Source of the DNA: an uncultured delta proteobacterium
GTDB taxonomy: Bacteria > Desulfobacterota > Desulfobacteria > Desulfobacterales > Desulfosalsimonadaceae
NCBI GenBank assembly: GCA_963826785.1
Contig: CAWGYD010000010.1
Coordinates: forward strand, 96,001 to 160,000
DNA: 64,000 nt
Reading direction: 5' to 3'
The notes under the pieces were generated by a model. That model was not told the DNA's origin and searched no databases. It saw nothing but the letters and a program-made list of their open reading frames with translations. Below are positions 30,746-51,912 of the stretch, piece after piece; positions within the stretch are counted from its first letter, which is position 1, and every line of letters begins with the position of its first letter. The position numbers and the translations under genes were made by a program.

Positions 30746-31585
30746 ATGCTCAAACACACCTTCTGCCATCTCACCCGCATCGGCGAAAAAACAGAAGACC
30801 GGCTGTGGTCTGCGGGCGTGGACTGCTGGGACCGCCTGGCCCAGGCCATGAATGACAATCACCCCGTGGGCGTATCGACCGGCTTTGCCCGGCACGAACT
30901 TGCGGCGTCATCGACGCATCTGGCCGCCAAAAATGCCGCCTGGTTTGCCCAGAAGCTTCCGTCTCACCAGGCCTGGCGGATGTTTCCGGACTTCAGGGAA
31001 GAGGCGGCTTACATCGACATCGAAACCACCGGCCTGACCATGCCCGACATCACCACCATCGCCCTCTATGATGGAAAGCAGATCAAGTGCTATGTCAATG
31101 GAGAGAACCTGGACCAGTTCAAGAAGGACATCTTTGATTACAAGATGATCATTACTTACAACGGCAAATGCTTCGATGTTCCCGTGATCGAATCTTTTTT
31201 CGGCATCCGGCTCACCCACGCCCACATCGATTTGCGCTATGTTCTGAAAAAGCTCGGCTATTCCGGTGGTTTAAAGAAATGCGAGCAAAAACTGGGCATC
31301 AGCCGCGGGGAATTAGACGGTGTGGACGGGTATTTCGCCGTCCTGCTGTGGCAGGAATACGTCGCCCATCAGGACCGCAAGGCGTTGGAAACCCTGATGG
31401 CCTACAACATCGAGGACGTGATCAACCTGGAGTCGCTGATGGTGAGTGCATACAACCTGAATATCAAAAACCTCAAATCCCTTTCCATCGCACCGATCAG
31501 TGACCCCTTGTCCCCCCTTCCCCCGGTCTATCCGGACCCCAAGACCATATACCGGATCAAGTCCCGGATCGCGGCAATGTATTAA
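30746..31585 (+). CDS. RNase H-like 3'-5' exonuclease domain protein (YprB-like)
   Basis: YIDIETTGL, TYNGKCFDVP, HIDL, GGLK..E..LG, YNIEDV. Confidence 0.85.
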   Translation: MLKHTFCHLTRIGEKTEDRLWSAGVDCWDRLAQAMNDNHPVGVSTGFARHELAASSTHLAAKNAAWFAQKLPSHQAWRMFPDFREEAAYIDIETTGLTMPDITTIALYDGKQIKCYVNGENLDQFKKDIFDYKMIITYNGKCFDVPVIESFFGIRLTHAHIDLRYVLKKLGYSGGLKKCEQKLGISRGELDGVDGYFAVLLWQEYVAHQDRKALETLMAYNIEDVINLESLMVSAYNLNIKNLKSLSIAPISDPLSPLPPVYPDPKTIYRIKSRIAAMY

Positions 31586-32673
31586 TTTCCACCCAGTTCG
31601 CCCTTGAACTCATCCATGGCCGCCCTGATGGGTATGGCAAATCCAAGCCCCTCAAACCCGCGCGTCAGTTCTTTCATGGTATTGATGCCGATCACCCTGC
31701 CCTCCTCGGTGATCAAGGGCCCGCCGCTGTTTCCCGGGTAAATTTTGGCATCCGTCTGGATATATCCGTCCCTGAAACCCGAGACGATGCCGCGGCTCAC
31801 GGAATCGGATAGATTCATGGGGCTTCCGATGGCGCATACCGCCTGTCCCTGGACCAGGTTTTGAGATCCCACAGATGCAATAGCCGGGGTAATATAGCCG
31901 TCCACCTTCAGAAGCGCCAGATCCTGGTCCTGGCTGGCGCGAATCAGATAGGCATCCAGCTCCGCCCCATCCTTTAAGGTCACTTTGACATTTCGGGTGA
32001 TCCCGGCCATGGCCACTGTGGTCTGATAATTTGATTTCTGCCCCTTGTATTTCTGCTTGCTGTTTTCATATTTCTGCTTTTGACGCTCATGCCGGTCCTT
32101 CCACGCGGTAAAATAGGCAAGATCGTCCTGATATTTCTTTTCAAGGGCATTTTTCCGGGAAGATCTGTCCGGAATCAAATCCAATTCACTTTTTTCCCGT
32201 TTCAAAAATTCGGAAGCTTCTTCGAGCCGCTTCGCTTCCAGTTCAAATCGGGTGTCGGCAAATTCGATTTCCGAATCGACATATTCAAAGGTTTCCTCCG
32301 CCCGCTCCACCTGGGTTTCATCACCCCGGATGACGTGGCGGTTCGTGATGATATACCCATCCTGGGAGACAAAAAAGCCGGATCCGATGCCGATTTCCGA
32401 GGTGATCTTCACGGCGGAGAGCGATGCTTCCTCGATTTTGTTGCGGGGCGGATATTTTGCATAAAGCATGCGTTTCAGGTCTTTTACGCCCGGCCCCTGC
32501 GTCATGCCATCCATGACTTCCATCTTTTGCAAATCATCGGTGGAGGGGGTATCGGTGAAAACCCAGTTTCCGTTTTCATCCTGATATTTATAGATCTCGG
32601 CCCCCGCCTCGGGCGCCAGAGCAAAACAGGTCATGCAAAAGAAAATAACGGGCAGCAGGGTATAGCGTGTCAT
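31582..32673 (-). CDS. Secreted trypsin-like serine protease with N-terminal DUF4124-like domain and coiled-coil insert
   Basis: Signal peptide, IYKYQDENGNWVFTDTP, GSGF, TNRHV, DLALL, GNSGGP. Confidence 0.87.
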   Translation of the reverse strand: MTRYTLLPVIFFCMTCFALAPEAGAEIYKYQDENGNWVFTDTPSTDDLQKMEVMDGMTQGPGVKDLKRMLYAKYPPRNKIEEASLSAVKITSEIGIGSGFFVSQDGYIITNRHVIRGDETQVERAEETFEYVDSEIEFADTRFELEAKRLEEASEFLKREKSELDLIPDRSSRKNALEKKYQDDLAYFTAWKDRHERQKQKYENSKQKYKGQKSNYQTTVAMAGITRNVKVTLKDGAELDAYLIRASQDQDLALLKVDGYITPAIASVGSQNLVQGQAVCAIGSPMNLSDSVSRGIVSGFRDGYIQTDAKIYPGNSGGPLITEEGRVIGINTMKELTRGFEGLGFAIPIRAAMDEFKGELGGN

Positions 32674-33553: not shown

Positions 33554-36382
33554 ATGATGATTGAAAAATCGGAGATCCACCCGAAGATGGTCGGCAAAGT
33601 CCTGTTTTCCAGATTATTTCCATTGATGCGCAAGGTCTTCGCAATTGCCTTCCTTCTGGTTTTATTCCTTGTTTTCCTGACGGGCGGTTTGCTCTTTTTC
33701 CTGCCGACCCTGGTGGATTCCGATCTGGCGAGGCAAAGTCTGGAAGCCACCCTGTCCGGTCAGCTTCGGCAGAAGGTGGAGATCAGGCGGATCTCTTTTG
33801 ACTGGCAGGACGGTATCATGCTGGATGGGTGCAGGGTGACTGCGCCTGGAGATACATCCGCGCAGCCCATTGCCCGGGTGCAATCGGTTCATCTGGCGCC
33901 GCACTGGGCGGGACTTCTCAAGCGCCGCCTCCGATTCGAATTTTCTTTAAACGGCCTCGATCTGCACCTGGTGAAGGATAAAACCGGCAGGATAACTTTT
34001 CTTCCGCATTCGGCTGCCGCTTCATCTCATAAGCCGAAGAAAATGGATGCAGAAAAGACGGCCGAACAGACCAATACAAAAGCGCCTTTACAACTCCCCC
34101 TGGATGTGGTTGCCGGCATTCGGATCCAAAATATTTCGATTTGCTTTGACGATCAGGCGGCAGGCCGCACCTACAATATAAAAGGCGGCGGCATCCGTCT
34201 GGAGACAGCTTCCCTGAAGACCCGGCCGGTCAGAATGGACATTCATGCCGGTATCACCATCGACGACGGGAATCCTGAAAAGATTGACGTAAACGCGGTG
34301 GTCTCAAACCTGTTTCAATCCGACGGCACCTTAGCCATCGGCGGAATATCGGCGCAGTTGCATGCCGACATTCCGGGAATCAAGGCTGTGCTTTCGGGTG
34401 ATGCGGCGGCATCCGGATTGACGGGGGATATCCAAATCGATCTGCCCCGGGTGCTTGCCGCAGTCGCGCCTTTCATGCCGGACGGGTTTAAGGATACGGT
34501 ACTCGGGGGAAACATTGCCATCACGGCCAGGGCATCCAGGTCAAAGGACAACACCCTTGTGGTGGATGGCAAAATCAACGGCAGCAGCATCAAGGCCGCC
34601 GGGCCGATTCTGCAGAACCGGTCCATCGGCCCGGCGGACCTGAGCCTTGCCATCCAGGCACAGGCCGACCCGGATGCGGGCATTTACCAATTTGACAATA
34701 TAGAGCTCAGGCTGCAGCAGAAAACCTTTTTGAAAGCCGGCGGGTCCGTTCATCAATCGGCCGGAAAAGAGCCGGCAATCGACTTCACTCTTTCTTCTGC
34801 CCGCATCGATTTAAACGAAGTCCTGGCGCTGGCGCACGATTTTCTCCCGGATCAGCCCACTTGGGCAGCCGCTCCCGACCGGCCCGCCTTTCTTTCGGTC
34901 GATCGGATCAAAGCCGTCCGTTCGGCATCGGGCGATGCCCGGATTGAGCTTGCGGGATTGAACCTTTGCCCCCCGGATATGATGTTGTCCGGCAACGGCG
35001 GTTTAGTGCATGTCGGGCAACCGGAGATCCGCATTAATGATTTAAGCGCCGATTTTTCCGAGAATTTTCCCGTTGCCGCCAAGTTTTCCGGCAGCCTGTC
35101 CGTAAAAGACGTCAAGGTGGAAAACGGCGGGGATATCATCGAAGTTTCCGGCATTCACATAGATCAACTGGGTATCAACGCCGATCAGATCCGAAGAGCA
35201 GAAGCCGCCAAACCGGGATTTTGCGCCCGCTTTGATGCCCGCCAGGCGCTTTTAATCGACCGCATTACCGTGTCCGACCGGGTTCGCATCCAAGGCCTTG
35301 CCCAGGATGCCGCGCTTACCGCTATCCTTTTTCCCGACGGCGCCCTGCAAAGCAGTCTGGAGCACCTGGCCATCCGTTTGAACGATCTTTCTCTTGACGA
35401 TCCCAGATGGGGAACCATCTCCACAGGTGCGGCACTGGACGCGCATGTATCCCAAGTAAGCCGGACAAATGCCGGGACAATCGATGCGGCCGGTGTGTCC
35501 GTGGATCTGGCGCTGCCGGATTTAGTGGAACTGGCTGTGGGCCTTGAGGCCCGGGACTCGGGCAAAAAAGCCATCACCGCGTCCGCCGACCTGTCCCTCC
35601 ACCTGGACAAATTCCTGTCTTTGCTCCCGGAGCCGCTGCGCGCCCAAATTTCAGGCGGCGGCACCTTGACCGTTGCCATAGACGCCAGCGGCCGCCTGCC
35701 GGATGCAGACGAGATAGCCCGGCTGGCAAAGCTCAACATGGAAAATCACCTTCCCTTTGTTACCCGGGTGGCCGCTCAAATCGCTCTTGCCGATGCCCGC
35801 GTGTCGATCAAAACGGATGTGGACCATCCAGTCGACATCCGCAGCATTATCGGAAATCCCGTTTTCGCATACGCCTATGACGGAAACACCGGCCGCGGCG
35901 AATTTAACAGCCGCATCCAAATCAGCGGCATCCATGCCGAACCGGCTCTCATACCCGAATCGGCCCGGTGCGACCTTGTGATCTCCGGCAGCCATCTTGA
36001 TGTAAATACCATTGAATTGTCCCAGGAACTCATCCATCGATCCCTATCAGGCCCGGCAGCGGCTTTCCATTACCGCAGACGGCCTGGCCCGGCTGATTGC
36101 CGCCCAAGGATGGGCAGACCCGGTGATGCTGTTGGAAAATCTCGGCGGCCGCGTGGCAATAGACATGAGCGTGCCGGATGCCGCAGCAGGAAAGGCGCCG
36201 GGCGCCAACATTTCTGGAAACGGGAGCATTTCAACGGCAATGGATATCCGGCTGGTGCCCGGCCGGAGCCTTTCGGGCAGCGTCGATCTGGAAATGGCCG
36301 ATTTCGGAATGTCCGCACCGGAGCGGTTTTCCCTCTCCTGTCTCACGGGCGCCCTGCACCTGGGCAAATCCTGGCGGATTGA
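33554..36382 (+). CDS. AsmA/YdbH-like inner-membrane-anchored beta-rich protein, N-terminal part (frameshift near 36032)
   Basis: N-terminal TM helix, AsmA-like N region, long repeated amphipathic beta strands. Translation degrades after ELSQEL. Confidence 0.7.
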   Translation: MMIEKSEIHPKMVGKVLFSRLFPLMRKVFAIAFLLVLFLVFLTGGLLFFLPTLVDSDLARQSLEATLSGQLRQKVEIRRISFDWQDGIMLDGCRVTAPGDTSAQPIARVQSVHLAPHWAGLLKRRLRFEFSLNGLDLHLVKDKTGRITFLPHSAAASSHKPKKMDAEKTAEQTNTKAPLQLPLDVVAGIRIQNISICFDDQAAGRTYNIKGGGIRLETASLKTRPVRMDIHAGITIDDGNPEKIDVNAVVSNLFQSDGTLAIGGISAQLHADIPGIKAVLSGDAAASGLTGDIQIDLPRVLAAVAPFMPDGFKDTVLGGNIAITARASRSKDNTLVVDGKINGSSIKAAGPILQNRSIGPADLSLAIQAQADPDAGIYQFDNIELRLQQKTFLKAGGSVHQSAGKEPAIDFTLSSARIDLNEVLALAHDFLPDQPTWAAAPDRPAFLSVDRIKAVRSASGDARIELAGLNLCPPDMMLSGNGGLVHVGQPEIRINDLSADFSENFPVAAKFSGSLSVKDVKVENGGDIIEVSGIHIDQLGINADQIRRAEAAKPGFCARFDARQALLIDRITVSDRVRIQGLAQDAALTAILFPDGALQSSLEHLAIRLNDLSLDDPRWGTISTGAALDAHVSQVSRTNAGTIDAAGVSVDLALPDLVELAVGLEARDSGKKAITASADLSLHLDKFLSLLPEPLRAQISGGGTLTVAIDASGRLPDADEIARLAKLNMENHLPFVTRVAAQIALADARVSIKTDVDHPVDIRSIIGNPVFAYAYDGNTGRGEFNSRIQISGIHAEPALIPESARCDLVISGSHLDVNTIELSQELIHRSLSGPAAAFHYRRRPGPADCRPRMGRPGDAVGKSRRPRGNRHERAGCRSRKGAGRQHFWKREHFNGNGYPAGARPEPFGQRRSGNGRFRNVRTGAVFPLLSHGRPAPGQILAD

Positions 36383-37214
36383 TCAATATTCGGGCGGTCT
36401 CACGGACGTGCCGACCGTCTGGTTATCCCGGAATCTGATGGCGCCGCTGTCATTTCCCGACCGGTCTGCCGGTTTCGGCGCAGAAACCCGCATGTTTCCA
36501 AGCGCCAGTCAACCGCCGGATATCACCATGGCATCCTTCGATCTGGCCCATTTGCCGATTCCCGTCAATATGGGGCAGTCGCGCCTGTCAGTTTCGCTGA
36601 CCGGCGGATTTCCGGAAGTCGAGTTTGCCCTTGATCTGCTAAACGGCACCATCACTGGATCGGCAGGTCTGATCCGGGAGCAGGACCAATATTATCTGCG
36701 TGTGCGCACCGCATTTTCCGGCATCGATTCAGCGGTTCTTATTTCCGATGCCGCCGCCCGGACCGGCGGTGAGACCGAAATCAACGGTGCCCTGTCCGCC
36801 CGCATTCCCGTAACCGGGTCGATGCGGACGCTGCTGGAAAATGCCCGGGTTCAGCTCTATTTTTCCCGGATCGGCAGCCGGGCGCTCGAGCGGATCCTCT
36901 ATGCCCTCGACCCTTATGAAAGCAATGAAGCCATCATGTCCCAGCGCCGGCTGCTGCGCACCGGTTCGCCGAAAGAGATCCGCCTGGGCGTCGAAAACGG
37001 ATTCTTATCCCTTGACGGATCGGTGGCGGCCGGATCGATCACCATCGACATTCCCAGGCTCCAGCGGCTCAATGTCGCCGAAATCCCGGGCATCAAAAAA
37101 TTTGAGCCTTCGCTTGCCGGCCTGGGAAACATCATCTCGATGCTCGATATCCTGACCGCCCAAACCCTTCTCACCGACCCGGCAAACCACCGGATCCGGT
37201 TCAGATCACCATGA
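36012..37214 (+). CDS. AsmA/YdbH-like protein, C-terminal part
   Basis: The +1 frame continues SIDPYQARQRLSITADGL... with the same beta-strand character. No RBS or start of its own. Directly upstream of the DUF1318 gene. Confidence 0.7.
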   Translation: MNCPRNSSIDPYQARQRLSITADGLARLIAAQGWADPVMLLENLGGRVAIDMSVPDAAAGKAPGANISGNGSISTAMDIRLVPGRSLSGSVDLEMADFGMSAPERFSLSCLTGALHLGKSWRIDQYSGGLTDVPTVWLSRNLMAPLSFPDRSAGFGAETRMFPSASQPPDITMASFDLAHLPIPVNMGQSRLSVSLTGGFPEVEFALDLLNGTITGSAGLIREQDQYYLRVRTAFSGIDSAVLISDAAARTGGETEINGALSARIPVTGSMRTLLENARVQLYFSRIGSRALERILYALDPYESNEAIMSQRRLLRTGSPKEIRLGVENGFLSLDGSVAAGSITIDIPRLQRLNVAEIPGIKKFEPSLAGLGNIISMLDILTAQTLLTDPANHRIRFRSP

Positions 37215-37224
37215 GGATAGCGCC

Positions 37225-37809
37225 ATGAAACATATTGCCGTTTTGGCCATGATCATCCTGGCTTCAGGGTGCACCCTGGCTCGGGTGAATGTGGAAATGC
37301 TCAGCGAACGCACCGCCCTCGAAAACCAGGTCCTGGGCTCATACAATTCGCTCGATTCGCAAATGCTGCTGACCGCATCCGTGCGGGGTGTGGATGCAGA
37401 AGGACAAATCTCCGCGCCCCCCCGGCAGAGCCGGGAATTTGCCGATTCCATTTCTGCCATGCAGGCCCTGGATTTTCATGCGGATGACCTGGAGGCCTTC
37501 AAGCGACTGGGATGGGCCGGGGAGAACCGCCAGGGGCTGATCGAACCTTTCGGCATCACCAAAGATGCCCCCCCGCCGGAGCTGAAGGATTTTGCCCAGC
37601 GCTATTCAGCGAAGGAATTCGAATTTGTGGTCTCCCGGATCAATGCGGCGCGGAAAGTATTGATGCAGCAGGTGATCTATATGAACGAAAACCTGTCCGA
37701 ATCGGACCTGCCCGAGGTGGGCCGGATATTTGCCGGAATGTATGCGGAAAAAGCCGCTCCCGGTGAGAAAATCCAGAATACCTCCGGAGCGTGGGAGATC
37801 AAGAAATGA
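37225..37809 (+). CDS. DUF1318 (YdbL-like) lipoprotein
   Basis: Lipobox LASGC, RTALENQVLG, GWAGENRQGL, NAAR, PGEKIQ..SGAW. GAGG RBS. Confidence 0.8.
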   Translation: MKHIAVLAMIILASGCTLARVNVEMLSERTALENQVLGSYNSLDSQMLLTASVRGVDAEGQISAPPRQSREFADSISAMQALDFHADDLEAFKRLGWAGENRQGLIEPFGITKDAPPPELKDFAQRYSAKEFEFVVSRINAARKVLMQQVIYMNENLSESDLPEVGRIFAGMYAEKAAPGEKIQNTSGAWEIKK

Positions 37810-40800
37810 GACCATCATCTCTTGATCATGCCGCGCATTCACCCGGCGGTGAAGCACCCTTTCTTGATTTCCCGTACAAGCGGGGATTGAAGGGGATGTT
37901 CTGCTGGCTGGCGATTTTCTGCACACTCCTGCCATGGACTGCAATCGCAAGCGGTTACAAAGATTTCGTTTCCATGCCCGTCCAGGTGACGGCCAGCAGT
38001 GATCCGGTTTCCCATTTTGCGGTCTCCTCCGACGGAAAAAAAATAGTCTACATCACCCAAAACGCTGCGGGCGCAAGCCTGTGGGTCGGCTCGGCAGACC
38101 CTGCGGTAATTGCCCTTCCCCGGCTGCTGGTCTCCGACCCATCCCTGAAATCCGATCCCGCCGTATCCGCCGACGGCCGGTTTGCCGCCTACTCTGGGAC
38201 GATAAACGATGTGAAGGGCGATATTTTCCTGATCGATCTTTCCGCCCCGGTCGCAGAAGCGCTTCGCCTGACCGGCCGGGACACCCGGGACGGCGGCCCC
38301 TGTTTTTCGCCGGACGGCGAAAAACTCTACTTTCACCAGGCAGGTCCGGGCCCGGTGTTTCACCTCTTCAGCATCGACCTTGAAAACCCCAAGGCCCCGC
38401 CTGTTCCCATCGACACGGATGGAGACGCACAATTTCCCGCTGTATCGCCGGACGGGACCCGGCTGGCGTTTGTCTCCTTCCGCAGCCATCCGTCGGGCGA
38501 CCTGTTCGTTTCCGATCTGGCGCAAAAAAGCATCACGCAGGTCACCCGGGGGCCGGCCATCGATATGGCGCCCCAGTGGTCCACGGATGGAAAATCCATC
38601 TACTTTGCCCAAATCGCGCAGGATACCGATCATGACGGGCGGATCACCCGAAACGATATCCCGGTTATCTGCCGCGTGTATCCGGATGCAAAAGCCCTTA
38701 CCCCGTCACCCCTGACGCCGCTGGATACGATCGCTTTTTCGCCCCGGATCACCGAAGACCGGTTATATTTTCTATTCAACCGCGCGGGTATCCTGAACTG
38801 CTGGGCCACACTGCCGGACGGGTGGATCAAATCCCTGGACACCGCCGGCGCGCAGGTGGATCTGGCCGGGCGGGTTTCCGGACGCGTGCCGGAAAATCCC
38901 TATTTGTCTTTGCTGGCCTGGCACCGGGTGCTGGAATTGTTCCCGGCAAATCAACGGGAAAATGCGGCAGCCGCCTACCGGATCGGAACGCTCTATCAGA
39001 AACTGAACCTGCCGGATGCCGCGGCACAGGCGTATAACCTGATAACAGACGATTACCGGGATATTTCGCCCCAGGCAGGGCAGGCGAAAATTCAGCAGAT
39101 AGTGCTTTCTTTTCAATCCCAGATGGCCCGCCAGACGGATCAAAGCTCCCGGACCGCATCGATGGATGAGGCGATCGCTTCCCTCTCCGCTATGGAGAAA
39201 AGCCGGGAAACGCAAGTCCGCATCGAGGCGGGCATCGAAAAGGCGGCCCTTCTGATTTCAGCCACAAACGCCCCGGAGCGTATGGTTCATTGCATATCCG
39301 GGCTGGATGAGATCCTCACCGACCCGGATGCGGACCCTTCCCACAAAGCCCATGCATTGTACCTGAAGGCCAACGCCTATGAGACCCTCAAAATTACCAA
39401 ATCAGCAGCCGATACTTACCGGAAACTGATCGTAGAATATCCGGATCAAAACGCGTGGGCCGATTTCGCGGTGGACCGCTATCTTGATGGTCTCCAGGCT
39501 GCGCAGCCCCGGCAGCCAATTGCAGACAGGATCCGGCGGCTGCAGCAGATTGCCGCAAAAAACCAGACCGATGCCCCCCTGCTGGCCATGGGGGCCTTAA
39601 ACCGGATCGGGGACCTGTATGCGGCCCAGGAAAAACTCGAGCAGGCCGGGTCCGCTTACCGCCAGGTGCTGGACACCTATCCGGCGAACACGCCGAGGAC
39701 CGCCGCGGCGCGGCTGGCCCTGGCCGAGATATATTACCGGCAGGAGCAATTCCGCAAGGCCCTTGATCTCTACGAAACCGAAATCAGCCGCCGGCCCGAG
39801 GAAGACCGGATTTATCAGCTGGCCCGGCAGGCCTACATCCGGAAAAAAAGCGGTGCCGGTGAATACCATTTCCGGCTCGGAGAAGTGCCTACGGCCCGCA
39901 GCCTGTTTGCCGAACTCATGGATTATGACGACCGGATCGTGGAGGCCCACCGGGGGTACATCAAGTGCGCGGCAGCCGAGGGCGACCTGCAGGCGGTGAT
40001 CGAATCATACCGCAAGCGGCTTTTGGCCTCACCGGATGACCCGGTGCTGCTCTATGCCACCGGCCTTTCACTGACCTACCTGGAGTCGGAGACATCTCTG
40101 GAACAAGCCCAGGACATGATCCTTTCGGCCATTGCCTTCAACGGCCGGGTTCAATACTTTTACCAGACCCTGGGCTACATCCATGAGGTCATGGAAACGG
40201 TCTATAAAAAGCCCCGCCGGCTGGAACTGGCCCTGGATGCCTACCAGAAAGCCTATTTTCTTAATGATTCCGCCGGCAACCCGGAAAATGCGGCCAACCT
40301 GGAACTGAATCTGGGCAACGTCTTTTACCTGCTGAAGCAGTACGGCAAGGCACTGGATTATTTCAGCCGAAGGGAGCAGCGGAAGATGGCCTTTGATCCG
40401 CCTTCTTCGGGGATCATCTTTTACAAACGCCTGGGCGAATGCGCATTTCAGCAAAATGACACCGAGCGTGCAGCCGCCGCTTTCCATAAATGCCTGGCCG
40501 ACATCGACCGCAGCATGGATCCTGTAGAGGCATCCCACGCCTTTGACCGGCTCCACGGGTTCATCCGGAACCGGATCGCCGCCCCGGGGGCCAAGCTGGC
40601 CCAGATTGAAAAATCAGCCGATCAGCTCCTTTCCGATCAGGCCGATATCAGCCGGGAGGTGGCGGCCCTGACCCGCGATGCGGCTGCTCCCCCTTCCGCG
40701 AAATGGCAGCGCTATCATGATGGCATGCAGGCCCTGCTGATCCGGCAGAAGGCCTTAAATGAAACGGCCGCAAAATTGGGCGAACGCATGAATACCCTCG

Positions 40801-42044
40801 CTGACGCCAAAGCCGCCTCGGCACGGGTGGAAAATCCCCGGCGGGTTCTTTCGGCCATGACCGGCCAGATTGAACAGGTTCTTGATTTTCCGGAGCGCCT
40901 GGTGCAGATGCGGATCGAAACCCTTGACCGGCTGGGGCTCGCCCGGCAGGAGTCCGGGCAATGGGAAGCGGCGGCTGAAGTATTTGAACAGGCATTTGCC
41001 CTCAACCAGCAGACGGGGAATCTGGCCAATCTTGCGAAAAACCGCCGGTCCGCCGCCTACAACACCTATATGCTGGCCCGGACCGCCACGGGAAAGCACC
41101 GGATCGATCTGCTTACACAATCGGCAGGCCAGTTCGGCCAGGTTCCTGAACTGGTGGATCAGTACGGCGTTGCCGCGCCCAAAGACGAGAATTCCGAATT
41201 TGCCCTGGTGAATTTATCCGTGCAGACGTCTTTGGATGCCGCCGCTTCCACCCGGGCGGCCCGGGGGTTTACCAAGGACCAGGAAATCCGGCTTGCAAAA
41301 ACCTTCCTCTCCCGGATTGCCACGGAACTGGGACATTTTGATCAGGCCGCAAAACTGCTTGAAGAACAGCTGGCCGATTACCCGGCCGGCAAGCCGGTGG
41401 CCGCTTCCGACCAGTACGGCGTATCCCTGCTCCATCACCGGGCCGGTCTGCTCGCTTATGCCCGGGGCGATTTTAAAGACGCATTTTGGCGTTTCGAGTC
41501 GTCGGCCCAATTTACTCTGCAGATGAAAAACCCGGTAAGCGCCATGGTCAATCTCAAGAACATGGCGGCCCTGCTGTCAGATTTTCCGGGACCGGCCCAA
41601 GGTCCTGTAAACGATGGATCCGCTTTTTCCCGGTTTTGTGCGCTGGACCGACAGGTGCGCGATCTTCTTAAAACATATCCCCCCCCGGACCAGAACGATG
41701 CGATGATTACCTGGCATCTGGCCATGGGGGTCTGCTATGCCAAACAGGGGCGCCGGGCCGGCCCGGAAGCAAAAGACAGCGTCTATGCGCTCGATGCTCT
41801 GATGACCGCCCAGTCCCATTTTCAACACGGCCTGTCGCTGATCCCGCCGGATGGACGGCAAAAAACCCGGGGCGCCGCCAAACAGGAAGCCATGCTGCAT
41901 TTGGACATGGCCTGTGTCGCCGAGATCCTGGGCGATATCGATCGCGGCACGATCCCATCGGGAAAAAGCCCTGTCCTTATGCGAGCAGGGCATGTTCCCC
42001 GGCCTGAAGTGGCGGGCCCTGGCCGGTCTGGGCCGGCTCGATGA
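37806..42044 (+). CDS. Giant exported PD40/TolB-like beta-propeller + TPR protein, N-terminal part of a CHAT protease gene
   Basis: Signal-like segment (MFCWLAIFCTLLPWTAIA), repeated P.[VFW]S.DG propeller motifs, many TPRs. Coupled to the DUF1318 stop. Frameshifts near 41943 and 42073. Confidence 0.8.
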   Translation: MRPSSLDHAAHSPGGEAPFLDFPYKRGLKGMFCWLAIFCTLLPWTAIASGYKDFVSMPVQVTASSDPVSHFAVSSDGKKIVYITQNAAGASLWVGSADPAVIALPRLLVSDPSLKSDPAVSADGRFAAYSGTINDVKGDIFLIDLSAPVAEALRLTGRDTRDGGPCFSPDGEKLYFHQAGPGPVFHLFSIDLENPKAPPVPIDTDGDAQFPAVSPDGTRLAFVSFRSHPSGDLFVSDLAQKSITQVTRGPAIDMAPQWSTDGKSIYFAQIAQDTDHDGRITRNDIPVICRVYPDAKALTPSPLTPLDTIAFSPRITEDRLYFLFNRAGILNCWATLPDGWIKSLDTAGAQVDLAGRVSGRVPENPYLSLLAWHRVLELFPANQRENAAAAYRIGTLYQKLNLPDAAAQAYNLITDDYRDISPQAGQAKIQQIVLSFQSQMARQTDQSSRTASMDEAIASLSAMEKSRETQVRIEAGIEKAALLISATNAPERMVHCISGLDEILTDPDADPSHKAHALYLKANAYETLKITKSAADTYRKLIVEYPDQNAWADFAVDRYLDGLQAAQPRQPIADRIRRLQQIAAKNQTDAPLLAMGALNRIGDLYAAQEKLEQAGSAYRQVLDTYPANTPRTAAARLALAEIYYRQEQFRKALDLYETEISRRPEEDRIYQLARQAYIRKKSGAGEYHFRLGEVPTARSLFAELMDYDDRIVEAHRGYIKCAAAEGDLQAVIESYRKRLLASPDDPVLLYATGLSLTYLESETSLEQAQDMILSAIAFNGRVQYFYQTLGYIHEVMETVYKKPRRLELALDAYQKAYFLNDSAGNPENAANLELNLGNVFYLLKQYGKALDYFSRREQRKMAFDPPSSGIIFYKRLGECAFQQNDTERAAAAFHKCLADIDRSMDPVEASHAFDRLHGFIRNRIAAPGAKLAQIEKSADQLLSDQADISREVAALTRDAAAPPSAKWQRYHDGMQALLIRQKALNETAAKLGERMNTLADAKAASARVENPRRVLSAMTGQIEQVLDFPERLVQMRIETLDRLGLARQESGQWEAAAEVFEQAFALNQQTGNLANLAKNRRSAAYNTYMLARTATGKHRIDLLTQSAGQFGQVPELVDQYGVAAPKDENSEFALVNLSVQTSLDAAASTRAARGFTKDQEIRLAKTFLSRIATELGHFDQAAKLLEEQLADYPAGKPVAASDQYGVSLLHHRAGLLAYARGDFKDAFWRFESSAQFTLQMKNPVSAMVNLKNMAALLSDFPGPAQGPVNDGSAFSRFCALDRQVRDLLKTYPPPDQNDAMITWHLAMGVCYAKQGRRAGPEAKDSVYALDALMTAQSHFQHGLSLIPPDGRQKTRGAAKQEAMLHLDMACVAEILGDIDRGTIPSGKSPVLMRAGHVPRPEVAGPGRSGPAR

Positions 42045-45000
42045 AGCCCTGGCCGCGCTTGAAACCGTCACCTTTAATGGATGCGGCATGCGTCCCCTTT
42101 GAAATCATGCATTCCTTTGCCCCCTTAGTCCTTGCCCATTCCCGGGCCGGACGGGTCGAAGAAGCGTTTAACCTGGCCGAACGCCTGTCCGAACTGGAGC
42201 GGTTCAACCGGATGGCCGAATTTGTCCGGCCAAATGATTCGGAAAGCCAATTTTACAGACAGGTATTTTACCGCCTTGAACGGATAGATGAATTACAAGC
42301 CCGCGCGCAAACCGCCAATGCGGCGGAAAAGGTATTTATTGCCGAAAGAATCGCCCAGGAAAAGTCATTGATGGAAAGCGATTTTGGCCCGGATGCCGAA
42401 AACCTCCCCCGGATCCTGCGGCTGATCTCCGGTCCCGACGCACGCAAGCAGATGATGCACCTCTGCGGCCTTTCCCTGGAGATCGAAACGGCTGCCGGGG
42501 CCATATGGGAAAACCCGTCCTCACCTGAATCGCGCAGCCGCTATGATCAGCTGGTTTCCAAATACCACGAAAGCGCCCGAAAGGCGGCCGGTCGGGGAGA
42601 GGATACCGGACCCGCAGACGTATTTGCCCTGATGGCGCCAAAACCCGCCGAGTTGATGGATGTCCAGTCGGTTCTGGATCCATCCGGTGATACCGTGCTG
42701 ATCCGCCTGGTGAGCCTGGGAATCAAGGCCCCGGCCTTTTTACTGTTTAGCGTGACCCCCGACGGCATTTCCGTTGTTGAAACCGCCGATCCGGTGGATG
42801 CCATTTCTCGCCAGGCCGATAAAATCGCCTACATCGCCTATGAACGCCCGGAAGCGCTGACCGCCTTGCCCATGCATCCCTTTGCCCTGAGCGCCACCCA
42901 TCTGGTTCGATGCATCGAAAACAAAAAACCGTTCAAGCAGAATCTGCTGGCCATCTCCCCTGCCCCCGGCATGCAGGATCTGGCAGAGATTTACCGGCTG
43001 CGCAGCATGTCCGAATTTCCCGCCATTGCCGATGAATCGTTTTTAAATACCCTGTCAGACACCCAGACACTGGCGGCCGCAGGCCCCCTCCGGTACGCCG
43101 CCACCGTTCCCACCGAACCGGACAGCCGACCTCGGCCCGTCCTTTCCCTTTCCCCGGATTATGCCTCCATATTTCCCGCAGAGCAGCTGATCGCAAACAC
43201 GCCCGGACTTTCCCTGGCCCTTCTGACCGATGCCCCGGTTTTAGATCCCTATATCGCCGGCCATTTCTTTTCCATCTTCGGCTGCTCCCAGCTGATCCTG
43301 ACCCGACCCGATGAAAGCACGGATAACTGGGTGCTCGATTTTTTAGACGCCTATCCGGATCTTCCCGCCTATGATGCGCTCAAAAACAGCTTGAAAGCGG
43401 CGGGAAAAGTAGATCATCCCACCGGGGTGATGTATCTCGGCTACCGGGGGATGGACAAAAAAGCAGCCACGGAAATGGCCCGGCAGCAATTTGCCCGATA
43501 CGTCAAAGCCGGGCGGAGCGCCTATGATGCCGGGGACGCGCGAAGGGCCCTGCCCCTGTTCGAAAATGCGGTTTCAGTCGCCCGGGAAGTCAAGGCATAC
43601 GCCACGTATCTGGGGGCACTGTACCGATTCTGCCGGGAAAGCGCCTACCAATCCGGCGACCTTGAAAAGGCCTTGAATTATGCACAACTGCTGGCCGACC
43701 AGATGGCGGCCGAACAGCCCGACACCAAGGCCCATGCAGAGGCGCTCCTGCGGCTGGGCCTTCTGCAGGCCCGGATGGAAAATTATCAACAGGCCGTGCC
43801 GGTCATTACCGAAGCGGTGGAAATGATGGGGAACCTGGACACCGATGAAGACCTGGTCAATGCCATGGTCGATCTGGGGATCGTGCTGGAAAACGCCACG
43901 GATTACCCCGGCGCCCTGAGCCGGTTCAATTCTGCTGCGCGCCTGAGCCAGACCCTGGACCGCGGGGAGCTGCTCGCGGCCCAGCAGTACAATATCGGCC
44001 GGATCCAGGACCTGAGGTTGAACCAGTATGCCCTGGCCATTTCACACTACCGCAATGCCCTGGAAGGATTTAAGATCGCGGGCAATACGGGCCGAGCCAT
44101 CGAGGCCATGATCGACATCGGCCGGTGCAGCCGTCTGCTGGGCAATTTCCCCCAGGCCGATGAGCAGTATACGCTTGCACTGGAACTGGTGGACCAAAAT
44201 CCGGAAGATCATCAAAGGCTGCTGCCGAAGATCCTCATCGAGCAGGCCAACAACGCCTGGTTTACAGGCCGGTATGAATCCGCTTTCCGGCTGCAGCGGC
44301 AGTGCGCGGCCCTGGCCGACAAGCAGGAAGATGAGGCCATGAAGGTGATGGCCGCAAACACCGCCGGGCTGATCTGGTGGACCCTGGGAGATACCGGAAA
44401 AGCAATGGCCGAACTCGAGGGCGCCCTCACCCTTGCGCAGGCAAACACGGCCCGCAAAGATGAAATCGCCACCACCTTGAACAACATGGGCCTGATTTAC
44501 CGGGACCGGCAGGACTTTGCGGCCGCCCTGGACTGCTTTGACCGCGCCCTCGACATCGACAGGAAAATCGGCTCCCGCTGGGGCATCGCCTATGACTGCC
44601 GGAACAAGGGGTTGACCCTTATTCTGATGGATGCGCCGGAAAAAGCCATCCCCTTGTTCACCGAAGCGCTGGAGATCTCCCGCGCCATCGGAAACCGCAT
44701 CAATGAGGCAAAAGCACTGATCGGCCTGGGCGATGGCTGTTTGCAGCTAAATGAACTCGACCCTGCCGAAAAGGCCTACACCGAAGGGCTTGCCCTGTCC
44801 GAGACCATGCTGCTAAAGGAGACCCAGTGGCGCGCACTGTATGGCCTGGCAAGGATTTTTCTGCTCAAAAATGACCGCAAAGCCGCCGAGCCGTATCTGC
44901 GCCGGGCAGTAGATGTGATCGAAGGCCTTCGCGCCGACATCAGAATCGATCAACTCAAGAAAAATTTTCTTTCCGGGAAGATGGATGTCTATGAAGACCT

Positions 45001-46372
45001 GATCCGGCTGCTGGCGGATGCAGGAAAGCCGGTTCAAGCCTTTGAAATCGCCGAGCGCTCCCGGGGGCGAAACTTCATCGATCTTCTGGGTAACCAGCGC
45101 ATTTCACTGAAGTCCGGTACGGAGGAGGCGCTGTATGAACGCTATCGCACTATCGAGTCACAGATTGAAGAATACGGGGCGCTGCTGGCATCGGCAGCCC
45201 GGCCCGAAGAGCGCAGCCTTTATGAAGGCAGGTTAAACAGCCTGAAAAACGATCTGGATGACGTGATGATCGACATGCAGGCCGCAAACCCGCAGCTTTC
45301 CGCATTCGTTTCCGTCCCTCCGGTGGACCCCGCGCGGATTTTGAATCAGCTTGCGCCCGGGACTGCGCTGGCGGCCTTCTATGTGCTCAAACAGGAAATC
45401 TTCTGCTGGATTCTTGCGCCCGATGAAGCTGGAGAAGGCAAAATTAAATTGTTTCGAACCCCCGGCGACCGGAAGGATCTGGAGCGTCAGATTCTGGATT
45501 ACCGCAGGGCCATTCAAAACCTGGAGCCCTGTGAAACCGATTCAAAAGACCTGTTTACCCGCCTTTTTTCCCCGGCCCGTCAAATGCTTGAAAATGTCAG
45601 CACGCTTGGCATTATCCCCCACGGCGCCTTGCACTACCTGTCCTTTGCCACCCTGATGGACGGGGACCGCTTCCTTATCGATGGTCATTCCCTGTTTTAT
45701 CTGCCCAGCGCCAGCATGCTGGAATTTACCACAAACCGCCGGGTCCACACGCCGAAAAAAGACCTGGAAGTCCTGGCCATCGGCAACCCGGACTTGAAAG
45801 ATCCCCAGCTGTCGCTTCCTTTTGCGGAGCGGGAAGTCAACACCATTCAATGGAATTTCCCGTCCATCACCATCCTGACCGGGGCGATGGCCACTGAAAA
45901 CTGGGTCAAGGAGAACATCGACCGGTTTGAAATCATTCATCTGGCTTCCCACGGTGAGTTCGATCCGATAAATCCCCTGCTGTCAGCCGTCAAACTCGCC
46001 CCTTCGGAGTTAGACGACGAACAAGCAATCCAAAACGACGGCGATCTGCAGGCAGCCGAGGTCTTCGGGCTCAAGATCAACGCCGACCTGGTATTTTTAA
46101 GCGCCTGCCAGACCGGCCTGGCTCAGATCACGGCCGGAGACGATATCATCGGATTGAACCGCTCCTTTTTCTATGCGGGCACCCATGCCGTCATCTCCAG
46201 CCTGTGGCGGGTCAGCGACGTATCCACCGCCATGCTGATCAAAACCTTCTACCGCCGGTATGCCACCGGCAATAAAGCCGACAGCCTGGCACAGGCCATG
46301 CGCCATGTAAAGCAGCGCTATCCCCACCCCGGCTATTGGGGGGCGTTTACGCTGGTGGGAGATTATGAATAG
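42041..46372 (+). CDS. TPR + CHAT (caspase HetF-associated) domain, C-terminal part of the same gene
   Basis: TPR array, AFEIAERSRGR, IIPHGALHYLSF, HLASHG (catalytic His), LVFLSACQTG (catalytic Cys), SLWRVSD, HPGYWGAF. Confidence 0.88.
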   Translation: MKPWPRLKPSPLMDAACVPFEIMHSFAPLVLAHSRAGRVEEAFNLAERLSELERFNRMAEFVRPNDSESQFYRQVFYRLERIDELQARAQTANAAEKVFIAERIAQEKSLMESDFGPDAENLPRILRLISGPDARKQMMHLCGLSLEIETAAGAIWENPSSPESRSRYDQLVSKYHESARKAAGRGEDTGPADVFALMAPKPAELMDVQSVLDPSGDTVLIRLVSLGIKAPAFLLFSVTPDGISVVETADPVDAISRQADKIAYIAYERPEALTALPMHPFALSATHLVRCIENKKPFKQNLLAISPAPGMQDLAEIYRLRSMSEFPAIADESFLNTLSDTQTLAAAGPLRYAATVPTEPDSRPRPVLSLSPDYASIFPAEQLIANTPGLSLALLTDAPVLDPYIAGHFFSIFGCSQLILTRPDESTDNWVLDFLDAYPDLPAYDALKNSLKAAGKVDHPTGVMYLGYRGMDKKAATEMARQQFARYVKAGRSAYDAGDARRALPLFENAVSVAREVKAYATYLGALYRFCRESAYQSGDLEKALNYAQLLADQMAAEQPDTKAHAEALLRLGLLQARMENYQQAVPVITEAVEMMGNLDTDEDLVNAMVDLGIVLENATDYPGALSRFNSAARLSQTLDRGELLAAQQYNIGRIQDLRLNQYALAISHYRNALEGFKIAGNTGRAIEAMIDIGRCSRLLGNFPQADEQYTLALELVDQNPEDHQRLLPKILIEQANNAWFTGRYESAFRLQRQCAALADKQEDEAMKVMAANTAGLIWWTLGDTGKAMAELEGALTLAQANTARKDEIATTLNNMGLIYRDRQDFAAALDCFDRALDIDRKIGSRWGIAYDCRNKGLTLILMDAPEKAIPLFTEALEISRAIGNRINEAKALIGLGDGCLQLNELDPAEKAYTEGLALSETMLLKETQWRALYGLARIFLLKNDRKAAEPYLRRAVDVIEGLRADIRIDQLKKNFLSGKMDVYEDLIRLLADAGKPVQAFEIAERSRGRNFIDLLGNQRISLKSGTEEALYERYRTIESQIEEYGALLASAARPEERSLYEGRLNSLKNDLDDVMIDMQAANPQLSAFVSVPPVDPARILNQLAPGTALAAFYVLKQEIFCWILAPDEAGEGKIKLFRTPGDRKDLERQILDYRRAIQNLEPCETDSKDLFTRLFSPARQMLENVSTLGIIPHGALHYLSFATLMDGDRFLIDGHSLFYLPSASMLEFTTNRRVHTPKKDLEVLAIGNPDLKDPQLSLPFAEREVNTIQWNFPSITILTGAMATENWVKENIDRFEIIHLASHGEFDPINPLLSAVKLAPSELDDEQAIQNDGDLQAAEVFGLKINADLVFLSACQTGLAQITAGDDIIGLNRSFFYAGTHAVISSLWRVSDVSTAMLIKTFYRRYATGNKADSLAQAMRHVKQRYPHPGYWGAFTLVGDYE

Positions 46373-46542
46373 AAGAATCCCTGATTGACTTTTCAGAATG
46401 ATTCTATACAAACATAGAAAGCAGGCACATTGTCATCAACAACAATTCTTATATCCAACGCCAAAAACGAAGATATTGTTGTGGTCAACTTTTTGCCGAA
46501 ATCATAAAAAAGAGAATTGCAGATAAACCGTACAGCAAAGGA

Positions 46543-47076
46543 ATGATCATGAAACGTATTACCCTCATGCTGACCTGCCTGGCCGGACTGCTCTGCTTCA
46601 CCTGGGCAGCCGCGGCCGCACAGACCCTGTGGGTCACCTCCGACCAGGCCGATTTGAAAGCAGACAGCAGCAGCACGTCTGAAACCGTGGCCACCCTGGC
46701 GCGGGGCACCGAACTGAATGTAAAGGCCACTGACAACCGGTGGTACGAGGTGAGCACCAAGGCTGGGGAGTCCGGATGGGTGTACCGGGGAAAAGTTTCC
46801 GAAACCGCCCCGGAGATAGATGCCTCTGCCCAGCAGAGTGATCCGGGTCTGGGCGACCTTCTGGGCGGGTTGTCCGGCAGTAGCATCGAGACGGACGCCG
46901 CCAGCACATCGCGCAGCATCCGCGGCCTGTCCCCGGAAGCCGTTCAGTATGCCGATCAGACCCATGCACCCGAGGACATCCGAAAAGCACTGGATGAGGT
47001 GCTGTCATACGGCATCAAAGACAATGAGATCGACCGGTTTTTAAAAGACGGCCGCATCGGCGAGTATGCCCAATAA
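46543..47076 (+). CDS. Secreted SH3b domain protein
   Basis: Signal peptide (AAA), LARGTELNV...WYEV.T..GESGWV, C-terminal SIRGL...FLKDG. Confidence 0.82.
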   Translation: MIMKRITLMLTCLAGLLCFTWAAAAAQTLWVTSDQADLKADSSSTSETVATLARGTELNVKATDNRWYEVSTKAGESGWVYRGKVSETAPEIDASAQQSDPGLGDLLGGLSGSSIETDAASTSRSIRGLSPEAVQYADQTHAPEDIRKALDEVLSYGIKDNEIDRFLKDGRIGEYAQ

Positions 47077-47097
47077 AGACTTTGAAAGGCATCGACC

Positions 47098-48024
47098 ATG
47101 AAAAATATTTTTCAGATCCCCCATAAACCGGCGTGCAACCGGCAGCGCCGCAGACTCCTGAAACTGGCCGGCCCACTGGCGCTGATGATGACCAGCCCCG
47201 TCTGGGCATTTGACCTGTTTCAGGTGATCGATCCCCAGGGCAAGAACAAGGACCTGCAAAAGGCCAAACAGGCCATGGAAGGCCTTGGCAGCATCTCCCA
47301 GAGCATCAAAGGCATCGATTACGAAACGGAATTTACCATCGGCGAAACCCTGGCCCTTGAAGGTTTTCAGCGATTTGGACTTCCCGTGAAAAATTCCGAA
47401 CTGCAAACGTACGTCAACACCATGGGAAAAGCCGTGGCGAAAAATTCAACGCGCCCTGAAATCCCGTACTATTTCGTGGTGGTCCAAAGCGATGTCTACA
47501 ACGCCTTTGCCTGTCCCGGGGGGATCATCTTCGTCAGTTCCCAACTGGTCAAGTCCATGGCGGACGAAGCCGAACTGGCCTGTGTGCTGTCCCACGAAGT
47601 CTGCCATGTGGGCTTCAAGCACGCCCTGCAGTCGGTCCGGAGGGCGAAATTCATCGAAGGTGCGGGCAAGATCGGCACCGTCAACATGAAGGGGGAGGAA
47701 GGCCAGAAATACCGGGCCATGATCGGCGACCTGCAGACGGTCCTGTTCGATCAGGGACTGGATAAGCAAATGGAGTTTGAAGCCGACCGGGAAGGCATGG
47801 CCTGCGCCTACCGCACCGGATATGACCCGGCAGGCATGCTCCGGGTGCTGGAGATGCTCAAGGCCAAACAGGCGGGCGCGCACACCAAGGGATCATGGTT
47901 TTCGACCCATCCGCCCCTGTCCGACCGGCTGTCCAAATGCAATGACCAGATGAAAAATTATCCGGATGCCTCCCAGATGGCGCTTCTACCGGATCGGTTC
48001 ACGAAGTACCGGCAGCTGCTGTAG
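47098..48024 (+). CDS. M48 family zinc metalloprotease, probable Tat signal
   Basis: RRRLLK + hydrophobic stretch + VWA, NAFACPGG, HEVCH, EFEAD, STHP..DR. Confidence 0.88.
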   Translation: MKNIFQIPHKPACNRQRRRLLKLAGPLALMMTSPVWAFDLFQVIDPQGKNKDLQKAKQAMEGLGSISQSIKGIDYETEFTIGETLALEGFQRFGLPVKNSELQTYVNTMGKAVAKNSTRPEIPYYFVVVQSDVYNAFACPGGIIFVSSQLVKSMADEAELACVLSHEVCHVGFKHALQSVRRAKFIEGAGKIGTVNMKGEEGQKYRAMIGDLQTVLFDQGLDKQMEFEADREGMACAYRTGYDPAGMLRVLEMLKAKQAGAHTKGSWFSTHPPLSDRLSKCNDQMKNYPDASQMALLPDRFTKYRQLL

Positions 48025-51595: not shown

Positions 51596-51912
51596 GTGAC
51601 ATCGGGTCTGATGAATTGATATCCGCCTAAAACCGGCCTTGCGATTGTAAGTAGGCATCATGTCAGACTTTTAGGTATTGATCAACGTCTAAATATTCGC
51701 TAAACGGATATAGATGCAGTGGGCAATTCGACTGACAAAAAATACAATACGATATCGCCAAATTTAGCGAAACAGCCGAACTTGATCAAAACATCTCAAA
51801 TCTTATAGTAAAGGCAGTAAAGCCAGGCATGGACCCCATTCAAACAGGTCCTTGTTCAATTTGCGAATTCGGCGACAAGAATTTGGCCTTTGCCCTTGAT
51901 GGAGAATATAAC

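Follow-up and report, generated by a model that had tools for sequence, protein, structure and literature searches.

Three genes, encoding an AsmA-like bridge protein, a lipoprotein with a YdbL-type fold and a giant exported protein that ends in a CHAT protease domain, form a core unit, accompanied by a portable SH3-M48 accessory pair. The linkage of the core genes is far beyond chance. In the reading we favor, to which we give slightly less than an even chance, the core genes are one inherited unit, likely a bridge of the YdbH-YnbE-YdbL kind in which the giant protein is a scaffold-protease that would cut the lipoprotein after an arginine.

The combination of bridge, lipoprotein and giant CHAT protein was not found described in the literature searched (largely papers outside subscription journals), in agreement with the earlier note on this DNA, which knew of no description. 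To our knowledge, outer-membrane lipid delivery by bridge-like proteins, and its switching, has been studied almost only in Proteobacteria, and we know of few bacterial caspase-like proteases with known targets. The gene set supplies an obligate, undescribed partner for a bridge-like protein in many other phyla, and the lipoprotein is a testable candidate substrate for a bacterial caspase-like protease. In addition, natural live and dead versions of the giant protein allow comparison.

Gene layout and reading frames in the window

The window is the whole 64,000 nt stretch of DNA that was analysed. Open reading frames and a Pfam scan confirm five genes within 33554..48024, all on the + strand. 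The features are:

33554..37214, + strand, AsmA-like bridge protein; Pfam YhdP; about 1,220 aa in relatives; N-terminal membrane anchor
37225..37809, + strand, lipoprotein (Cys16); Pfam DUF1318; YdbL-fold domain
37378..37386, + strand, Ser52-Val53-Arg54, inferred candidate cleavage site just past the first lipoprotein helix
37806..46372, + strand, giant protein; PD40, TPR and CHAT (Pfam); about 2,850 aa in relatives
41944..43470, + strand, degenerate middle TPR-CHAT copy without His-Gly and Ala-Cys motifs; limits approximate
45542..46363, + strand, C-terminal CHAT (Pfam CHAT)
45950-45952 (catalytic His), 46106-46108 (Cys) and 46217-46219 (Asp of W-R-V-S-D), + strand, CHAT residues located by motif search
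46549..47076, + strand, SH3b protein; SH3_3 match; Sec-like signal; conserved R-S-I-R-G-L tail; accessory
47098..48024, + strand, M48 zinc metalloprotease; Peptidase_M48; HEVCH; Tat-like signal; accessory

The bridge and lipoprotein genes are separated by 10 bp (37214/37225), the lipoprotein and giant genes share a 4-bp ATGA overlap (37806/37809), and the SH3 and M48 genes lie 21 bp apart (47076/47098), so that the co-directional arrangement and spacing claimed earlier are borne out. The giant and SH3 genes are 170–176 bp apart. Export or anchor signals had also been claimed for all five proteins, and the N-termini fit as judged by hydrophobicity (KD) and motif. The bridge displays a membrane anchor (KD 3.39), the lipoprotein a lipobox (ASG-C16) and the giant a Sec-like signal; the Tat-like RRLL signal of the M48 protein is the weakest of the five (KD 1.41). 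Promoter and terminator scans gave 11 versus 6.8 ± 2.9 expected and 27 versus 18.6 ± 4.5 expected, respectively, with no clear operon promoter.

The bridge gene shows one frameshift near 36032, as placed by tblastn, and the giant gene two, near 41940 and 42060–42100, each +1 relative to intact relatives. These three one-base frameshifts are probably assembly errors. The source assembly has frame changes elsewhere too, in 8 of 51 further genes that were matched (two of these rows are probably the same region), and the catalytic residues of the giant are intact.

Linkage of the core genes and the accessory pair

A neighbourhood search supports the conserved co-occurrence that had been proposed. 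In 80 lipoprotein loci from GTDB the giant gene is directly downstream in 66 and about 1 kb away in one; the contig ends in three and the gene is absent in ten. In 80 metagenome loci it is directly downstream of the lipoprotein gene in 48, within 7 kb in 5 and absent from the covered DNA in 17, with the contig ending in 10. Taking the first possible start codon in each case, the lipoprotein frame runs into that of the giant in 64 of 92 paired loci. When the giant gene is not adjacent to the lipoprotein gene it is found elsewhere in the genome (10/10 tested genomes).

Presence in whole genomes gives the same pairing, with counts that include related genomes and hence are not independent samples. 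Among 60 relatives the lipoprotein is found in 19 and the giant in 18, all shared; in the 19th the start of the giant lies at a contig edge. A set of 400 phylum genomes has the lipoprotein subfamily in 8 and the giant in 10, with all 8 shared and the other 2 at contig edges. In a second phylum sample both proteins occur in the same two of 116 genomes, one of which has the full operon in order. As a negative control, 31 genomes whose DUF1318 matches are all weak and generic were checked, and none has the giant. The giant is also present in several further phyla, and gene order is preserved across phyla at 22–30% identity. Identities of the lipoprotein and the giant co-vary (Spearman 0.90), a value that shared descent alone would also give.

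Giant-like proteins occur in spirochaetes as well, where they are known from protein similarity alone. Desulfonema magnum, available in culture and with its genome complete, is among the carriers.

The SH3-M48 genes are a portable, recruited accessory protease pair. Orthologues are missing from some core carriers and are present without the core in one genome (G030), and in another (G097) the two are fused into one protein. Sister SH3-M48 pairs adjoin CHASE2 adenylate cyclases in 7 of the 9 loci examined; the source genome gives no CHASE2 match and a cyclase-domain match only. The HExxH motif is present in 29/29 complete M48 homologues and a twin-Arg motif in 28/51; structure matches in PDB are 3c37 and BepA. 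Plasmid searches with SH3 and M48 gave no match. The R-G-L tail of the SH3 protein was considered as a CHAT site and rejected, as the same tail occurs in sister pairs away from giant genes (4 of 9 sister loci, of which three genomes have no giant at all, and locus L246). Of the five-part system proposed in the earlier note, the conserved co-occurrence stands, but only three genes make up the core, and the SH3-M48 pair is portable.

Core proteins, proposed mode of action and alternatives

The bridge carries an N-terminal domain of the AsmA/YhdP/DUF748 type following its membrane anchor: the YhdP N-terminus profile scores 48.2 bits (cut-off 46) and DUF748 is above cut-off in 2 of 6 relatives scanned. 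A model of an intact relative (L020) has a pLDDT of 85 and is almost entirely beta. The model looks like an all-beta repeating groove, in line with the beta-groove fold expected for the first protein, although its fold matches are partial. The top Foldseek match is LPD-3 (prob 1.00), which is partial (TM 0.17, rmsd 18 Å), and Vps13 is also matched in part at prob 1.00. A wide fold search places porins first (Z 12, rmsd 17 Å) and gives Vps13 with Z 9.2 and rmsd 5.9 Å; TamB and YhdP structures are absent among the fold matches listed, which is still compatible with that fold. The bridge is predicted to be a repeating beta-groove, membrane-to-membrane lipid carrier.

The lipoprotein consists of a short N-terminal strand-like segment, a helix (28–51), a linker and the YdbL-fold (DUF1318) domain. 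Its model (pLDDT 86.6) has E. coli YdbL 28oj as the top structure match (prob 1.00, TM(target) 0.87, rmsd 2.4 Å). Residues 18–26 are disordered when the protein is folded alone, which is compatible with beta-strand augmentation to the bridge, but is no proof of it.

A separate, canonical-looking ydbH-ynbE-ydbL operon is also present in the source genome. The bridge shows no YdbH Pfam match and hhalign gives 3.9% against the C-terminus of the YdbH-like protein of that genome. Similarly, the N-terminal segment of the lipoprotein has no real profile match to its YnbE-like protein (hhalign, 4.5%), and a YnbE-type family is absent among the matches listed for 25 lipoprotein members. Judged by sequence, neither of the first two genes is a YdbH/YnbE orthologue; the likeness to the YdbH module suggested in the earlier note holds for the YdbL fold but not for orthology.

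The giant displays a signal, a TolB-like propeller, TPRs, a dead CHAT copy, further TPRs and a CHAT domain with a His-Cys dyad (Pfam CHAT, E = 6e-58). The middle and C-terminal regions align with each other (hhalign 97.5%, E = 6e-12, 437 columns). A borderline hydropathy value of 1.77 in the C-terminal half is compatible with an internal membrane segment. An export signal is found on the CHAT homologues, most with the dyad intact; it is an ordinary Sec-like signal in most and includes a lipobox-like Cys in some. A single-sequence search of PDB with the CHAT region gave no match. With a CHAT-region profile, DdvA 8rot is matched (E = 5e-4), the His-Gly and Ala-Cys motifs line up with their Csx29 counterparts, and separase is not among the matches.

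In 114 close giant homologues the His motif is present in 110, the Cys motif in 113 and W-x-V-x-D in 113. The Asp of the latter motif may correspond to the P1-pocket Asp of separase. It is absent at the equivalent motif in both Csx29 types. HetF is reported to cleave after Arg117 (PMC9457339), a conserved Asp of separase binds the P1 Arg (PMC10317155) and the Csx29 types cleave after Met or Leu (PMC11506125). By analogy, the CHAT domain of the giant likely cuts after Arg. In the lipoprotein, S52 and R54 are invariant in all 93 loci that also hold the giant, and the Arg is kept in 104 of 114 wider representatives.

In E. coli, YdbL prevents YnbE from stacking and is itself subject to protease control, according to a preprint (bioRxiv 10.64898/2026.03.16.712125). 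By analogy, the N-terminal strand of the lipoprotein would extend the groove toward the outer membrane, with the YdbL domain capping the strand-helix unit and keeping it from stacking. Here the cap cannot be titrated or degraded alone as proposed for E. coli, because cap and strand are one chain. The giant is predicted to bind the lipoprotein of the bridge, its propeller and TPR arms holding the parts and sensing a trigger. Once activated, it may cleave the lipoprotein at Ser-Val-Arg, past the helix but ahead of the YdbL domain. This would release the cap and thereby switch how the bridge is assembled or turned over. The SH3-M48 pair would join as a recruited accessory.

A more specific proposal, which we hold only tentatively, is a protease-gated lipid bridge, where a periplasmic protease that resembles separase and is specific for Arg removes the tethered YdbL cap as an on/off switch and the Leptospiraceae form is a dead scaffold. 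If true, this would be a fourth design for outer-membrane lipid supply beside TamAB, YhdP and YdbH-YnbE, common to Desulfobacterota, Nitrospinae, KSB1, Calditrichota, Planctomycetota and others.

It is also possible, although we think it somewhat unlikely, that the giant acts chiefly in a structural role, scaffolding or docking the bridge as a TolB propeller with a TPR arm would. The lipoprotein would then stay uncut, and CHAT activity would be a side function, either self-processing or directed at some other substrate. The dead middle copy and weak TolB and YbgF/CpoB profile matches are consistent with this. The His-Cys dyad is missing in 6 of 81 aligned giant rows, one named Leptospiraceae; these giants, known from protein sequences, keep the 2,600–2,700 aa architecture. 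Catalysis therefore appears dispensable in some lineages. Twelve fused DUF1318 lipoproteins of the generic kind, taken from genomes lacking the giant, were compared by eye; in 8 of them [VI]-Arg lies close to where the first helix ends, so the lipoprotein Arg may be structural. However, no part of the giant is as well conserved as the CHAT end (0.70–0.74 per column), the dyad is kept in 75/81 rows, and both motifs are found in 63 of 65 loci with the lipoprotein and a complete CHAT, the remaining 2 being unresolved by pattern.

A doubtful alternative is that the bridge moves acylated protein cargo and not bulk phospholipid, the giant being the cargo or its maturation/release enzyme. The AsmA-like GspN is required for lipoprotein surface transport (PMC12802150). 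The lipobox-like Cys of some giants, and the canonical-looking operon already in the source genome, also fit a cargo role; against it are the ordinary Sec-like signals of most giants and the lack of secretion genes beside the operon within the window. In addition, 16 of 19 relatives have no DUF1318 match other than the core lipoprotein, and so no second YdbL-type module, which would be expected of a protein that serves as the YdbL of a bridge. A DUF1318 match is missing entirely in 24 of 60 relatives; the core system is therefore not essential in the group.

The earlier note proposed a periplasmic proteolytic cascade, possibly for envelope-stress signalling, defence or controlled lysis. Such a cascade, running from CHAT to M48 and comparable to the role of DdvA, we regard as improbable. 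The periplasmic TPR-CHAT sensor DdvA (PMC11506125), the CHASE2 cyclases beside sister pairs and the patchy presence of the core within genera agree with a cascade. But no sigma factor, anti-sigma or effector gene is present in the operon, the scanned window flanks contain ordinary enzymes and no Cas genes, and PADLOC gave generic TPR matches and one weak CHAT-region match. The absence of SH3-M48 from some core carriers, its occurrence alone in G030 and the missing CHASE2 match in the source genome also argue against it, and no evidence supporting defence or lysis was found in the operon, the scanned flanks or PADLOC.

A purely historical linkage, or a decaying pseudo-operon in the source genome, is very improbable and the former is largely refuted for the family: three frameshifts and the identity co-variation would fit, but all parts are kept in genomes where the operon has come apart into separate chromosomal loci, order survives between phyla, and frame changes affect other genes of the assembly while catalytic residues are intact.

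Comparison with known systems

The protease domain of HetF acts inside the cell. The giant shares with Csx29, HetF and separase a TPR arm ahead of CHAT, but theirs are intracellular and the giant is predicted to be exported. The separase and craspase protease domains act intracellularly (PMC11506125). The giant is not a Csx29 member (NCBIfam 46.8 versus a cut-off of 300) and the locus has no CRISPR link. Nor does the TolB family cover the whole giant (77.5 bits versus a cut-off of 343); propeller repeats only are matched.

The M48 protein has the M48 domain and HExxH in common with BepA/LoiP. It differs in its 308 aa length without C-terminal TPRs, in being paired or fused with SH3b, often with a Tat-like signal, and in its BepA family score (89 bits versus a cut-off of 570). 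GspN of Acinetobacter type II secretion (PMC12802150) is likewise an AsmA-like beta-groove protein with a dedicated partner system, but no type II secretion genes are seen beside the present operon.

DdvA of Myxococcus xanthus (PMC11506125; PDB 8rot) is also a periplasmic TPR-CHAT protein with a His-Cys dyad, so the earlier description of characterised CHAT proteases as cytoplasmic does not hold for all of them. As described in that report, DdvA serves a CRISPR-CBASS island. It is an anti-sigma factor of 991 aa that spans the membrane, has a zinc domain in the cytoplasm and works with an ECF sigma factor. An N-terminal zinc anti-sigma domain and an ECF sigma neighbour of this type were not found in the giant or the window flanks scanned. 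Unlike DdvA, the giant opens with a signal followed by a PD40 propeller and contains two copies of CHAT, and its gene is linked to that of a bridge.

The YdbH-YnbE-YdbL system (PMC11126948; bioRxiv 10.64898/2026.03.16.712125) shares an inner-membrane AsmA-like protein, followed by a lipoprotein, and the YdbL fold (28oj). The present bridge differs in its length of about 1,220 aa and in showing DUF748/YhdP-type profile matches and no YdbH match. Furthermore, lipoprotein and YdbL are joined in one chain, and the system has the giant CHAT protein as an obligate partner in the genome.

Operon layout and frame state

Five co-directional genes, proposed at 33554-48024 in the earlier note, are present in the window; Pfam matches are given in brackets.

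33554..37214, forward strand: AsmA-like gene, here the bridge (YhdP N-terminus)
37225..37809, forward strand: YdbL-fold lipoprotein gene (DUF1318)
37806..46372, forward strand: gene of a giant propeller-TPR-(dead CHAT)-TPR-CHAT protein (PD40, TPR and CHAT)
46549..47076, forward strand: SH3b gene, here SH3 (SH3_3)
47098..48024, forward strand: M48 gene (Peptidase_M48)

The spacings read earlier, a 10 bp gap, a 4-bp ATGA overlap and a 21 bp gap, were all reproduced, and the giant and SH3 genes lie 170-176 bp apart. The export or anchor signals that had been assigned to every gene are likewise predicted, as hydrophobicity and motif reading suggest hydrophobic or motif-bearing N-termini on 5/5. 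In the source assembly (11 contigs, 87.8% complete) the bridge and giant genes are disrupted by three +1 frame changes, near 36032, 41940 and 42060-42100. The same two genes are undivided in relatives, with single frames of about 1,210-1,250 aa (bridge) and about 2,850 aa (giant). Assembly error is quite probably the origin of the three changes, because 8 of 51 other matched genes of the source genome also change frame, in mixed directions (two of these rows are probably one region), and because the catalytic residues of the window copy are unbroken.

Two neighboring genes lie on the opposite strand.

31582-32673, reverse strand, just upstream: exported DUF4124 - coiled segment - trypsin-like protease; none is found beside the operon in relatives whose loci were compared
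48782-51661, reverse strand: a protein of 959 aa whose C-terminal part has HEAT repeats, without further Pfam matches; homologues adjoin the operon in several family members

Linkage of the core genes and portability of the SH3-M48 pair

The bridge, lipoprotein and giant form a core that is linked or co-retained across GTDB, relatives and phylum samples. The window-type lipoprotein subfamily has 102 GTDB loci. In the best 80 of them the giant directly follows the lipoprotein gene in 66 and lies about 1 kb away in 1; it is absent in 10, and 3 are untestable. An AsmA-like gene is upstream of the lipoprotein in 69 (5 untestable, 6 undetected). Whole-genome search of 10 split genomes (8 of the 10 giant-absent loci and two further) located the giant elsewhere in 10/10. 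The bridge was located elsewhere in 4/5 genomes tested and SH3 in 5/5, one of these adjacent anyway.

Nineteen of 60 relatives carry the lipoprotein, and the 18 that carry the giant are all among them; in the 19th lipoprotein carrier a giant start lies at a contig edge. SH3 is present in 19 of the 60 and an M48 orthologue in 18. The lipoprotein is the sole DUF1318 match in 16 of the 19 carriers, while the other 41 relatives comprise 17 with a different DUF1318 type and 24 without any match. Of 400 phylum genomes, 8 carry the subfamily (E < 1e-40) and 10 the giant (E < 1e-30, leaving out two matches near 1e-8); the giant is present in 8/8 subfamily carriers, and the remaining two giants are at contig edges. 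As a control, the giant is found in 0/31 genomes carrying only weak DUF1318 matches and nearby in 0/12 such loci retrieved. No P value is given for linkage because these counts are drawn from related genomes, not independent samples.

By source name, full-length giants come from Nitrospinae, Planctomycetota, KSB1, Calditrichota, Coatesbacteria and Leptospiraceae. A divergent lipoprotein alignment retrieved 439 metagenome loci; in the best 80, many of them Desulfobacterota-like, the giant is next to the lipoprotein gene in 48, no more than 7 kb away in 5 and not in the locus DNA in 17, with 10 untestable. Lipoprotein and giant both occur in 2 of 116 genomes from the phylum of genome G466, the same two genomes, and one genome of this sample, G562, has all five operon genes with order kept. 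Atlas clusters of look-alike lipoproteins are most frequent in Spirochaetota, a lead only.

At three loci (L034:6577-7602, L035:6537-7586, L231:10598-11623), in a lineage whose giant lies apart from the lipoprotein, the lipoprotein gene is followed by a conserved gene of 341-349 aa that has no Pfam match.

SH3 comes after the giant at 34 of 43 testable GTDB loci and at 12 of 15 from metagenomes. The SH3-M48 pair is portable. One lineage carries the core but no SH3 orthologue, and genome G030 (94% complete) has SH3-M48 orthologues at the unchanged flanking position (L256 = G030:C8:8000-27900), with the three core genes not found in that genome. Genome G097 displays an SH3-M48 fusion inside the operon (L030:3523-4755) and a second, unfused pair elsewhere (L240). 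Nine sister pairs are situated elsewhere: 7/9 have a CHASE2 adenylate cyclase as neighbor, and some a FadL-type outer-membrane protein. The M48 protease of the window has a Tat-like twin-arginine signal (47098-47200), also seen in 28 of 51 homologues, mostly Desulfobacterales-like; the remainder look Sec-like.

The order CHASE2 adenylate cyclase - SH3b - M48 (- FadL/TodX-type outer-membrane protein) recurs in Desulfobacterota (loci L247-L255; e.g. G454:C3:1410000-1422000, G105:C50, G119:C43), in genomes mostly without the giant. The literature search gave no description of this combination, which may be a separate envelope-sensing system.

Structure of the core proteins and a candidate cleavage site

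The model of an intact bridge relative (52 sequences, pLDDT 85) predicts a long succession of beta-strands. With Foldseek the top match was the bridge-like lipid transfer protein LPD-3 (prob 1.00, E 5e-6, TM 0.17), with Vps13 also among the matches; a wider fold search ranked porins top with poor rmsd and also matched a fragment of Vps13 (Z 9.2, rmsd 5.9 A over 174 residues). By sequence the bridge is AsmA-like and not YdbH. A second operon of the source genome (L140 = G000:C1:255709-258975) we take to be a canonical ydbH-ynbE-ydbL from its motifs, gene order and Pfam match.

In the lipoprotein model, residues 18-26 are a disordered strand-like segment and residues 28-51 a helix, and a linker leads to a YdbL-type domain; this C-terminal domain compares with the E. 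coli YdbL crystal structure at TM 0.87, rmsd 2.4 A. A Ser-x-Arg motif (Ser52-Val53-Arg54) opens the linker between helix and YdbL domain and is invariant in 93/93 giant-linked loci.

An N-terminal hydrophobic signal is found in 108/114 close and 62/75 more distant full-length giant homologues. The middle of the giant is a dead copy of its own TPR-CHAT end (hhalign 97.5%). In the C-terminal CHAT of the 114 close homologues the His motif is present in 110, the Cys motif in 113 and W-x-V-x-D in 113. The giant CHAT motifs align to those of Csx29, and DdvA matched too.

In E. coli, YdbH and the lipoprotein YnbE build a bridge through strand augmentation, YdbL binds the C-terminal helix of YnbE and limits its stacking, and free YdbL is a DegP substrate (PMC11126948; bioRxiv 10.64898/2026.03.16.712125; PMC12447247). 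The favored reading is that the giant would be a scaffold-protease, binding the bridge module and cutting the lipoprotein after Arg54, where a linker starting with Ser-x-Arg tethers the YdbL domain to the strand-helix unit. It is favored because Ser-x-Arg is invariant, because HetF cuts after Arg (PMC9457339) and separase recognizes a P1 Arg through Asp (PMC10317155), and because W-x-V-x-D is kept, whereas Csx29 proteins, which do not cut after Arg, have no Asp at that position.

The main rival is a purely structural role of the giant. Of 81 rows in the distant set, reference row included, 75 keep the His-Cys dyad and 6 have lost it; these dyad-less lineages count against Arg54 cleavage, as does a comparable Arg in 8/12 generic fused DUF1318 proteins. 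The dyad-less giants (P0390, named Leptospiraceae; P0387, P0383, P0378, P0384 and P0393) are 2,630-2,680 aa long and retain the propeller and TPRs; the C-termini of three tested give a weak CHAT match (14%).

Comparison with known systems

The operon is real and conserved, with a predicted function. Of the novelty claimed earlier, a periplasmic CHAT protein has a precedent in the TPR-CHAT protein DdvA (PMC11506125); the coupling of CHAT to a predicted lipid bridge is undescribed as far as the literature was searched. The giant belongs to the CHAT family without being a DdvA-type anti-sigma factor or a Csx29. Although the core differs from YdbH-YnbE-YdbL in having neither a YdbH sequence nor a separate YnbE, it probably works like that system.
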